Assembly (NCBI GenBank): GCA_050260055.1
Contig: JBLNBO010000046.1
Coordinates: forward strand, 1,962-65,961
From: Ignavibacteriales bacterium
GTDB taxonomy: Bacteria; Bacillota; Clostridia; Acetivibrionales; UBA4821
Direction: 5' to 3'
Length of the DNA: 64,000 nucleotides
Shown: in pieces, positions 34,957 through 37,281 of the stretch
Layout: the number at the start of each line of letters is the position of its first letter
How positions within the stretch are numbered: the first letter of the stretch is position 1
Program-made: the position numbers and the translations under genes
The notes under the pieces: model-generated
What the model was told of the DNA's origin: nothing
Databases searched by the model: none
Seen by the model: only the letters and a program-made list of their open reading frames with translations

Positions 34957-37281
34957 TTACTGTACTGTGATCGTAGTTGCAACGCTCACTGTTTCGCCAA
35001 CTGACTGAGCCGCTACGGAAATAGTATCCCCTTGAGACAAAATCAACCCAGAAACAATCCAGTTTCCATTGGTATCTACAATGGCCAGTTGAGCCATCCC
35101 ATTAACACTAAACACTACGTTTGAACCAGCAGGTGCAGTTCCTGATACTGTTGTGGCTCCTGCTGTTACAATCCCAGAAATTACTGGTGCTGCTGTTTGA
35201 ATTGGGGTTGGGACTGCTGATACTTCTACCATATATAAAGTTTTACCATCGGCAGCTATAACAGCCGGTAAGGCTACCCCATTAACGCTTACCACTACAC
35301 TTGAGCCAGCAGGAGCTTTCCCTGATATAGATGTATTGGCTGCTGTAACTTTTCCAGAAATTATCGGTTCCGCGGTTTGAAGCGGCTTTGGAGTTACAAT
35401 CTTTATTGTTTCTGTATTCACTGTTTCACCAGCATATTCTGCGTTTACAGAAAGAGAATCACCTTGTGACAATTTTAAATCGGATACTGTCCAATTCCCG
35501 CCATTTGCCACTACTGCTGGCTGGGCTTTTCCGTTAACGTTAAGCACTACATTTGTACCGGAAGGTGCTTTTCCCGAAACAGTTTTATCCGCAGCTGTTA
35601 CTTTCCCGGAAATGATTGGCTCTGCGGTTTGAATTGGGGCTGGAACTACTGTTATTATTACTGCAGTGCTTACTCTTTTACCAACCGATTGAGCAGTTAC
35701 AGAAATGATATCCCCTTGTGATAAGTCTAACCCTGATACCTTCCAGTTGCCCCCATCAGCTGAAACAGCAGTTTGGGCTACATTGTTAATACTAAGTATA
35801 ACATTTGATCCGGAAGGGGCTTTTCCTGATACAGCTGAATCTGCATCTGTTATTGCTCTGGAAATAACCGGTGCCGATGTTTGAGGCGGAGCCTCAGCTA
35901 CTATGGCAGTAGTTTTTGTACTTATTGTTTCACTTGGATACTGAGCGGTTACGGAAATAATATCTCCTTCTGCCAGTTTTAGCCCAGACACTGCCCAATC
36001 GCCACTGGCATCTACACCTGCTTTTTGATTTACGAGGATTAACAGCCAACGAATTCCGGTAAGGACTACAATCAAGACAATAGCTCCAGCAACACTCCAA
36101 AGAGGTAGTGAAAATAACAGTGTGATGCACGCAACAATACCTAACCATGAAATAATTGGCCAAGTAATTCGGTTTTCCTTGGTCACCTTTAGAGCAGCCA
36201 GGTTAGTTATTATATACCAGATAAGCGTACAGGTACTTGCCACCGGAACAAGTTGTCTCAACGGAACCAAATTAACAAGTGCCAAACCTACGATAGTTAG
36301 TAGTAAAATTGCAAATTGTGGGGTTTTTAAACGTTTATGCACAGTACCGAGCAAATACGGCAATTCATGTTCTTGCCCCATGGCATGTCCTACCTTTGAG
36401 GTACTCATTAGGTCACCTAGTATATCGCTAAATGCTAATATCCACGCGGATAATAGTATAATATATATACCCCATCCTGCAGTTGCCTTTGTTGCCCCAA
36501 GGAAAAGTGGAGTATCGCTCTTACCCATAGCATTAGCACCAAGCACACCAAGTGTAACTCCTGCAACAATTGTATAAATAATTGCAGCAATTAAAATTCC
36601 GCCAATAATTGCAAATGGTATTGACCTACGTGGATTCTTAATTTCATTCGCCATGATTGCTGTACGTTGAAAACCATCCCACGACCAAAAAAATGCTGCT
36701 GCTCCACTTAAAATACCTGTTATTCCAGGTCCGAAAACTGGGGACAGATTTTGCACCTTTACACTTGGTATAGAAAAACCAACATACACTATTAGAAGGA
36801 TTAAATTAATAAAAAATATGCTAATTATTGCATTAGCAGTAGGTGTTATTCCGAAGAAATTTACCGCGGCGACAACCAGTATAGCAATACTTGCCATAAG
36901 GGGTATGGGCAATCCATGAAACATTTGCGACGAATAGTGAGCAAACCCAAGTGCGGCAATACCAAGACCTACAATGCCTTTAATTAAATATGAAATACCA
37001 GCAGCGAAACTGATTGTTGGATTACCAAAAATTCGCATCCATATGAAAGCCCCACCTTCTTCGGGATAGTTAACACCTGCCTGCGCCGCACTGATACCTG
37101 TCATTAATACAATTACACAGCCAATGAGCATTGCAATTAAAATACCACTTTGGGCTTTGCTTGTTGCTACTCCCAATGTGGTGAATATACCAGTACCAAC
37201 CATCATTCCCGCTGTAAGAAGTAGTGCAGCTATTTTTCCCAAACTTCCTTTGCTGGAACCTGTTGAATTAGAATTGCCCAT
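34957..37281 (-). CDS. APC-superfamily amino acid/polyamine permease fused to C-terminal tandem Ig-like repeats
   Basis: Residues 1 to about 424 are a 12-TM APC permease (AGMMVGTGIFTTLG). Residues about 425-774 are 3 full and 2 partial copies of an approximately 80-aa beta-rich module (P.ISG.VTA....VSGKAP.G.NVV..VNG...GNW.VS.L.LSQGD.ISV.A). Confidence 0.8.
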   Translation of the reverse strand: MGNSNSTGSSKGSLGKIAALLLTAGMMVGTGIFTTLGVATSKAQSGILIAMLIGCVIVLMTGISAAQAGVNYPEEGGAFIWMRIFGNPTISFAAGISYLIKGIVGLGIAALGFAHYSSQMFHGLPIPLMASIAILVVAAVNFFGITPTANAIISIFFINLILLIVYVGFSIPSVKVQNLSPVFGPGITGILSGAAAFFWSWDGFQRTAIMANEIKNPRRSIPFAIIGGILIAAIIYTIVAGVTLGVLGANAMGKSDTPLFLGATKATAGWGIYIILLSAWILAFSDILGDLMSTSKVGHAMGQEHELPYLLGTVHKRLKTPQFAILLLTIVGLALVNLVPLRQLVPVASTCTLIWYIITNLAALKVTKENRITWPIISWLGIVACITLLFSLPLWSVAGAIVLIVVLTGIRWLLILVNQKAGVDASGDWAVSGLKLAEGDIISVTAQYPSETISTKTTAIVAEAPPQTSAPVISRAITDADSAVSGKAPSGSNVILSINNVAQTAVSADGGNWKVSGLDLSQGDIISVTAQSVGKRVSTAVIITVVPAPIQTAEPIISGKVTAADKTVSGKAPSGTNVVLNVNGKAQPAVVANGGNWTVSDLKLSQGDSLSVNAEYAGETVNTETIKIVTPKPLQTAEPIISGKVTAANTSISGKAPAGSSVVVSVNGVALPAVIAADGKTLYMVEVSAVPTPIQTAAPVISGIVTAGATTVSGTAPAGSNVVFSVNGMAQLAIVDTNGNWIVSGLILSQGDTISVAAQSVGETVSVATTITVQ
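34960..36009 (-). repeat. In-frame tandem coding repeats (about 240-nt period) encoding the Ig-like modules
   Basis: Repeated peptide blocks and repeated DNA blocks such as ccagaaattatcggttccgcggtttgaa / cccggaaatgattggctctgcggtttgaa. Confidence 0.8.

Follow-up and report, generated by a model that had tools for sequence, protein, structure and literature searches.

The 64,000-nucleotide window analysed here (contig JBLNBO010000046.1, deposited as Ignavibacteriales bacterium) carries on its reverse strand a gene in which an APC-family amino-acid permease is followed by a tail of immunoglobulin (Ig)-like repeats. An earlier note on this DNA had read the gene as a 12-helix permease running on in frame into the repeats, and the open reading frame (ORF) is indeed single and uninterrupted, with neither stop codon nor frameshift across its 774 amino acids (aa). 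The permease-Ig fusion is a real, reproducible and undescribed architectural variant of the APC family, both halves of which come from known families. No description of such fusions was found in the searchable literature, which agrees with the earlier note, whose author knew of no transporter with a built-in adhesin- or scaffold-like tail. The gene and its parts are as follows.

34957..37281, minus strand: complete fused gene, encoding the APC permease with its tail of Ig-like repeats, 774 aa plus stop (intact ORF, domain profiles, identical NCBI protein)
36022..37281, minus strand: permease domain, residues 1-420, with 12 transmembrane (TM) helices in the LeuT/APC fold (Pfam, hydropathy, AlphaFold 2 (AF2) helices, Foldseek)
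35878..36021, minus strand: half repeat H, residues 421-468, directly after TM12, containing only the C-terminal part of the module (GDWAVSGLKLAEGDIISVTAQ...) (alignment of fused homologs)
35638..35877, minus strand: full Ig-like repeat R1, residues 469-548 (NCBIfam profile, alignment, tail-only model)
35386..35637, minus strand: full Ig-like repeat R2, residues 549-632 (NCBIfam profile, alignment, tail-only model)
35206..35385, minus strand: shortened repeat T, residues 633-692 (same deletion in all fused homologs)
34960..35205, minus strand: full Ig-like repeat R3, residues 693-774, at the C-terminus (alignment, repeat identities)

The core of the fused protein is a canonical 12-TM APC amino-acid-type transporter. 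Pfam AA_permease_2 (PF13520) matches residues 15-394 with 104.4 bits (threshold 27, E 9e-30) and AA_permease (PF00324) matches residues 21-406 with 97.1 bits (threshold 24.6). Twelve membrane helices are placed between residues 14 and 418 by the hydropathy profile together with the AF2 secondary structure, TM6 and TM11 lying under a simple hydropathy threshold, and the TM1 G-T-G motif, which is invariant in the permease family, is intact. When the permease model was compared by Foldseek with BasC (9H76/6F2G), AdiC (5J4N/3L1L), ApcT (3GIA) and GkApcT (5OQT/6F34), target-normalised TM-scores of 0.76-0.84 were obtained over ~430 columns. These transporters have the same fold over 12 helices and end a few residues past TM12, whereas the fused protein adds 354 residues of beta-sandwich repeats. 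None of the named APC subfamilies (BcaP, SteT, PotE, AdiC etc.) could be assigned by an NCBIfam equivalog or subfamily cutoff; the best subfamily score was 157.7 bits for TIGR00909 (cutoff 556.8), and BcaP scored 110 against 690. Since all of these scores fall far below their cutoffs, the substrate of the permease is not assignable by family. No riboswitch or T-box was found 5' of the permease, the only RNA element detected being a glmS ribozyme elsewhere, and the search for plasmid copies of the fused gene yielded only distant permeases of 26-29% identity.

The tail, residues 421-774 (354 residues), spans positions 34957-36009, the segment that the earlier note had singled out. The three complete and two partial Ig-like copies proposed there are confirmed, R1, R2 and R3 being full and H and T partial. 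The half repeat H holds strands E-F-G only, and T is without ~24 residues that form the E-F hairpin and correspond to GNW..VSGL..GD.ISV.AQ., while the full copies share 57-60% pairwise identity. The repeats are of the Big_6/Ca_tandemer class: the NCBIfam model NF033510 (Ca_tandemer repeat) matches in 4 stretches with 75.1 bits, above its cutoff of 50, and Pfam Big_6 gives just a "faint" precomputed match and does not appear in the hmmscan list at E<=1. The tail-only AF2 model is all-beta with a mean predicted local distance difference test (pLDDT) score of 81, confidence dipping at the PAPxQT linkers, and its best PDB matches by Foldseek are the Bap C-region (E 5e-9) and the SiiE BIg array (4e-8). 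Together, the above-cutoff profile and these structural matches support an Ig-like tail of the kind found in surface adhesins. An alternative repeat phase, corresponding to a circular permutation, was rejected, as the pLDDT minima sit at the PAPxQT linkers. H has a pLDDT of just 44 when the full-length protein is modelled, compared with 80-89 in the tail-only model, in which T has the lowest values of the tail (58-73, with its last 16 residues <50). It could be that H, with its E-F-G strands, and T, without its E-F hairpin, pair as complementary parts, so that R1-R2 form a closed loop. Because Tandem Repeats Finder (TRF) detects no DNA-level tandem repeat in the region, the copies are considered old and diverged rather than the product of a recent expansion. 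A word-indexed protein search with the tail alone gave 4 fragments, and exhaustive phmmer was used instead; it recovered 252 relatives, mostly giant multi-repeat proteins. In the PDB, no sequence relatives were found for the tail, nor for the DUF1529 protein encoded beside the fused gene.

The gene fusion is genuine and is maintained both vertically and horizontally. An identical 774-aa protein is present in three assemblies, namely a 77.6-kb NCBI contig of a metagenome-assembled genome (MAG) and two separate Logan assemblies. A search for homologs with and without the tail, as the earlier note had proposed, returned both forms: at least 15 fused homologs (58-73% identity, 709-1006 aa) and a set of tail-less relatives. 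Hosts of the fused form include Paenibacillus (the filicis/gyeongsangnamensis record and kribbensis), Clostridium magnum, Candidatus Clostridium radicumherbarum, Desulfitobacterium sp. Sab5, a Symbiobacteriaceae MAG, a Clostridiaceae MAG and several metagenome contigs, and in Desulfitobacterium sp. Sab5 the fused gene lies intact in a complete chromosome. The earlier note had reckoned with a repeat region that forms a separate ORF in relatives, or with a mis-assembly, and neither is the case. That a mis-assembly, missed stop or frameshift merged two genes, one for a permease and one for a repeat protein, might be suspected, given that the contig of the window is metagenome-assembled and its taxonomic label unreliable; with an identical product in three assemblies, the same fusion in isolate genomes and no tandem DNA repeat to mislead an assembler, such an artefact is virtually inconceivable and is already refuted by the homologs.

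All 15 aligned fused homologs contain H, R1, R2 and T, and only the number of distal full copies differs, with 0-3 more copies added at the R3 position. Since both the shortened and the half copy are kept in every one of them, these copies are ancestral, and the shortened copy, which had been taken as evidence of repeat recombination, indicates neither a recent event of this kind nor assembly trouble. On average, pairs of homologs share 70% identity in the permease, 70% in H, 67% in R1, 61% in R2, 58% in T and 55% in R3, and orthologous repeats, at the same position in different species, are 65% identical versus 58% for paralogous ones. The ratio of nonsynonymous to synonymous substitution rates (dN/dS) by the Nei-Gojobori method (NG86) is ~0.15-0.35 for the tail, compared with ~0.08-0.22 for the permease, and these tail values indicate purifying selection. 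In one metagenomic ortholog (locus L020, 2-1768), a single in-frame stop occurs in R1 where the window protein has Q (VAQ), with the downstream repeats intact; either the tail was recently pseudogenised there or the stop is a read error.

The tail-less relatives are 426 aa long, share 58-66% identity and end in ...IRTKIRPA right after TM12. They were seen in an Acidobacteria MAG and in unassigned soil metagenome contigs, and the tailed form occurs in Bacillota from spore-forming lineages wherever the host can be judged. Amino-acid identity of 66-73% across Bacilli, Clostridia and Symbiobacteriaceae, with dS often just 0.6-1.0, argues for horizontal spread of the tailed form.

Comparable combinations of an APC fold with additional domains are known, and each differs from the present one. 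LAT1-4F2hc/CD98hc, b0,+AT-rBAT and GkApcT-MgtS, which are among the structural matches, likewise pair an APC-fold carrier with a permanent non-transport accessory. In heteromeric amino-acid transporters the accessory is a separate, glucosidase-like, extracellular polypeptide with its own TM helix, whereas here it is Ig-like, fused to the TM12 end predicted to be cytoplasmic within a single ORF, and has no TM segment. The cation-chloride cotransporters NKCC1 and NCC, which likewise turned up as structural matches, and fusions of APC permeases with Usp domains also combine an APC-superfamily core with a large cytoplasmic C-terminal domain, but those domains are alpha/beta regulatory or dimerisation modules rather than tandem adhesin-type Ig repeats. 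The Bap C-region (7DM0), SiiE (2YN5) and NF033510/Big_6 proteins carry the same repeat class as the tail by profile and fold; their repeats are secreted or wall-anchored in dozens of copies, in contrast to three full and two partial copies on a polytopic transporter without an export signal.

In the solved 12-TM APC transporters BasC, AdiC, ApcT and GkApcT, the N and C termini are cytoplasmic, and by homology the termini of the fused permease are predicted to lie on the same side. Averaged over 22 family members, the predicted loops carry 18.4 Lys/Arg inside versus 4.5 outside, and the stretch after TM12 has 3.2 Lys/Arg on average; after this helix R411 is invariant, and R416 and K420 are nearly so. 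The hydropathy profile of the tail contains no 13th hydrophobic segment, its sole later peak (657-679) being a beta-strand stretch. In addition, the APC homolog P0096 bears a Usp domain, which is of cytoplasmic type. Given the 12-TM superposition, the Lys/Arg count of 18 versus 4.5 and the lack of an extra hydrophobic segment, the tail is predicted to be cytoplasmic, a location that we consider probable. The earlier note had pointed to a conflict between the C-in topology of such transporters and the surface-type repeats, and this conflict is genuine. Of the two ways out that it offered, an extra TM helix is contradicted by the count of 12 helices, the absence of a hydrophobic segment in the tail and the full superposition on 12-TM APC structures. 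The other, that the Ig modules act inside the cell, is favoured by the positive-inside count and by R411, R416 and K420, the location itself being a prediction from sequence. Set beside the marks of extracellular Ca_tandemer/Big_6 repeats, the tail shows no export signal and follows an even number of TM helices with conserved Lys/Arg.

The genes next to the fused gene provide a possible partner. In the window and in related loci (numbered here with L), the relevant genes are the following.

37460..38425, minus strand: two-domain DUF1529/DUF1259 protein (LppY/LpqO = ChrL family), upstream neighbour of the fused gene, no signal peptide (Pfam PF07485, 284.6 bits, 2 stretches)
LysM-DUF1529 genes of other loci: L001 6870-7844; L002 6800-7777; L018 8759-9736; L022 5217-6271

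Of 12 tail-bearing loci, 7 have a DUF1529 gene no more than 1 kb from the fused gene. Deletion of ChrL in Arthrobacter FB24 lowers chromate resistance (PMC2751784, as cited in PMC7060636) and the ChrL gene of Cupriavidus is chromate-induced (PMC2751784, PMC7060636). In three Clostridial/Desulfitobacterium loci and in L022, the DUF1529 protein begins with LysM at residue 1, and a hidden signal peptide is impossible in those of L001, L002 and L018 because stop codons lie 4-6 codons upstream. The copy in the window has neither LysM nor signal peptide; it shares its MSFLY start with the L022 protein and has lost a recognisable LysM. In Clostridia, therefore, both gene products carry "outside-type" domains without export signals, since this holds for the LysM-DUF1529 protein as well as for the tail. 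By contrast, classical signal peptides are found on the DUF1529 proteins encoded next to the permeases of Paenibacillus and Acidobacteria. A conserved HNH..E.PR..(F/Y).H motif, which could be metal-binding, recurs in each DUF1529 domain. In L022 (5217-8786), an older JGI metagenome contig, the LysM-DUF1529 gene and the fused permease gene are both split by apparent frameshifts (5837/5822 and 7222/7212), which are probably sequencing errors and not biology.

The wider neighbourhood links the permease subfamily to chromate and metal resistance. Of 34 distinct loci of this subfamily, 18 hold a DUF1529, ChrA, ChrB or beta-propeller gene, as do nine of the 12 tailed ones, within the DNA available per locus, which in many cases is a short contig. 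ChrA and ChrB adjoin the homologs in L003, L004, L010, L023, L031, L032, L039 and L041. For example, the Paenibacillus locus (L003) has the order chrA, chrB-N, chrB-C ... permease-Ig, ChrL, beta-propeller ... ChrL, and the Symbiobacteriaceae locus (L004) has EamA, permease-Ig, ChrB_C. The high-GC soil contig L032 (170-5607) presents a chr operon-like arrangement of beta-propeller, lectin-like protein, ChrB, ChrL, ChrA and tail-less permease. In the Acidobacteria locus L010 (589-11257), the tail-less permease directly follows OEP-RND-MFP efflux genes, with ChrL-ChrB_C-ChrA ~8-9 kb upstream. The same accessory genes (ChrL, ChrA, ChrB, WD40/beta-propeller) that make up the chromate resistance determinant of Arthrobacter FB24 and the chr operons of Cupriavidus flank the permease subfamily in many loci, whereas the described determinants include no APC permease, and the window has a ChrL-like gene with neither chrA nor chrB. 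Among the top-ranked hits of the literature search, no APC permease in a chr cluster was found. This small permease subfamily, tailed or not, is a recurrent and undescribed passenger of chromate/metal resistance clusters.

In the window, the DUF1529-permease pair is divergent from a unit of P1B ATPase and CsoR-like genes.

38548..40816, plus strand: CsoR-type operator palindrome (38548-38568), P1B heavy-metal ATPase (38567-40486) and CsoR-like repressor gene (40535-40816)

In L018 and L022 the order is ATPase, LysM-DUF1529, permease-Ig, and a CsoR-like gene precedes these in L018. The palindrome belongs to the ATPase/csoR units and not visibly to the permease, and among eight loci no conserved operator was found 5' of the fused genes, only AT-rich chance matches. 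It is perfect, ATATGCCCC-ATA-GGGGCATAT (C4-N3-G4), and lies in the region 38517-38568, directly preceded by a TTGACA-17-TACAAT promoter and overlapping the beginning of the P1B ATPase gene. Similar C4-N-G4/5 sites occur 5' of csoR-like genes in L001 (~10778) and L003 (~1638), and the palindrome is likely a CsoR-family operator.

From these features we infer the location and the role of the tail as follows. The tail would have been captured once from the repeat array of a surface protein by a recombination that cut inside a repeat, which would explain why a half domain is fused straight onto TM12; purifying selection would then have preserved it, and horizontal transfer would have distributed it among Bacillota. 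The permease may move an amino acid or a related small organic ion that is helpful under chromate or metal stress. Chromate competes with sulfate, and one example of such a role would be the supply of sulfur amino acids when chromate compromises sulfate uptake. The tail would form a rigid beta-sandwich rod of three full and two partial domains, ~15 nm when extended, projecting from the cytoplasmic end of TM12 and acting as a scaffold for docking or spacing, with the DUF1529 protein encoded alongside as the most plausible partner. To this composite, a permease acting in chromate/metal stress with a cytoplasmic Ig rod that docks a partner, likeliest the DUF1529 protein, we assign a probability of roughly 0.55.

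Several points weigh against this composite. The scaffold role of the tail is a guess, the link between the gene and chromate is predicted from the neighbourhood, and a tblastn search of the 64-kb window with ChrA and ChrB queries recovered neither chrA nor chrB. The closest carriers of the repeats other than permeases have signal peptides together with SLH, fn3, Big_2, InlB-B or Shr domains, the composition of the tail resembles that of Gram-positive surface proteins (59% S/T/V/A/G, zero Cys/His, 0.6% Arg), and Paenibacillus, Acidobacteria, Arthrobacter and Cupriavidus export their DUF1529/ChrL proteins. The very closest of these carriers, P0113, seemingly lacks a signal peptide, but this is not evidence of a cytoplasmic carrier, as the contig edge truncates its ORF and further repeats lie upstream. 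Such features would fit a tail that reaches the outside through an atypical topology or an unknown export route, the Ig rod spanning the thick Gram-positive wall as a stalk or adhesin, where it could meet exported ChrL-type proteins. This arrangement would suit a repeat class found in secreted or SLH-anchored proteins, the Ca_tandemer match in NCBIfam, the Bap and SiiE adhesins as best structural matches, the export of ChrL homologs in many taxa and the restriction of the tail, where taxonomy is known, to Gram-positive lineages, the tail-less form occurring in the Acidobacteria MAG and unassigned soil contigs. It is difficult to reconcile with 12 helices that superpose on solved C-in transporters, a strong positive-inside bias that includes three conserved Lys/Arg straight after TM12, the lack of a 13th hydrophobic segment, tail-less homologs that share TM11-12 at ~65% identity and end in RTKIRPA, and a Clostridial DUF1529 partner without a signal peptide, and we regard an extracellular tail as unlikely.

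If the tail is cytoplasmic, it might still do nothing: an accidental recombination may have appended a surface-protein fragment that persists as tolerated, functionless baggage in a young, horizontally spreading family. Such a fossil would be expected to show a junction inside a repeat, varying distal repeat numbers with truncated copies (P0017, 709 aa; P0013, 752 aa), an occasional in-frame stop such as that in R1 of the metagenomic copy, and tail-less relatives that evidently function without a tail, all of which are seen. It would not be expected to keep the tail dN/dS at 0.15-0.35 with dS up to >1, to conserve the half domain H as strongly as the permease (70%), to hold on to H, R1, R2 and T in all full-length homologs from several orders, or to leave orthologous repeats more alike than paralogous ones, and we consider this explanation improbable. 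There is also an outside chance that the tailed permease resides in the outer forespore/mother-cell membrane with its tail reaching into the assembling coat, an arrangement that would link both the transporter and a ChrL-like protein for metal stress with the spore surface. LysM-first proteins without a signal peptide are typical of coat proteins made by the mother cell (SafA, YaaH), and the coat assembles at the cytoplasmic face of the outer forespore membrane. Spore-forming host lineages, a LysM-first partner without a signal peptide and a SigE/SigK-like sigma factor in the window give it circumstantial support; a look by eye, which does not amount to a test, yielded no usable promoter of sigma-E or sigma-K type.

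Should the tail prove cytoplasmic and functional, it would represent an intracellular use of a repeat class otherwise known from secreted adhesins, and would call into question the custom of taking Big-type repeats as proof of a surface position. Conversely, an extracellular tail would mean that a 12-TM APC protein breaks the C-in rule. Regardless of the tail, the association with chr clusters suggests an amino-acid-transport component in chromate tolerance.

On the other side of the fused gene, its downstream neighbours on the minus strand form an apparent arsR-hgcA-hgcB-acr3 operon (31569-34543). The cap-helix motif of HgcA (32993-34180) reads NVWCAAGK, HgcB (32679-32981) combines two CX2CX2CX3CP clusters with a CC at its C-terminus, and an Acr3-type arsenite carrier directly follows hgcB. 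A link between arsR and hgcAB has been published (bioRxiv 10.1101/2022.10.17.512643), and the presence of acr3 in one unit with arsR-hgcAB fits the proposed arsenic connection.

With regard to the host, the Ignavibacteriales label conflicts with the GlmS encoded in the window, which is closest to Clostridia proteins (~70%) and has a 94% relative labelled Deltaproteobacteria. A glmS ribozyme (42933-43083, minus strand, 90.8 bits) lies upstream of glmS (41040-42983), and the SigE/SigK-like sigma factor is encoded at 2278-3015 and scores under the equivalog cutoff. A contig labelled "Methanofastidiosa" (L017) that has a fused homolog also carries a Spo0E-like gene. We read these odd MAG labels as binning errors, the GlmS relatives, the glmS ribozyme and the sigma factor pointing to Clostridia. 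Elsewhere in the window, a 549-aa ORF (16138-17787, minus strand) has no Pfam or NCBIfam match, and a very Cys-rich secreted protein of 134 aa (18224-18628, plus strand; CSTANNCATIRCSNGKCYTINCSTGSC...) has no family match. A ferritin-like protein (15598-16104, plus strand) has a Tyr/Pro/Met-rich N-terminus and weakly resembles the cargo ferritins of encapsulins, with a score under the cutoff (EncB family, 35.7 bits versus 90).

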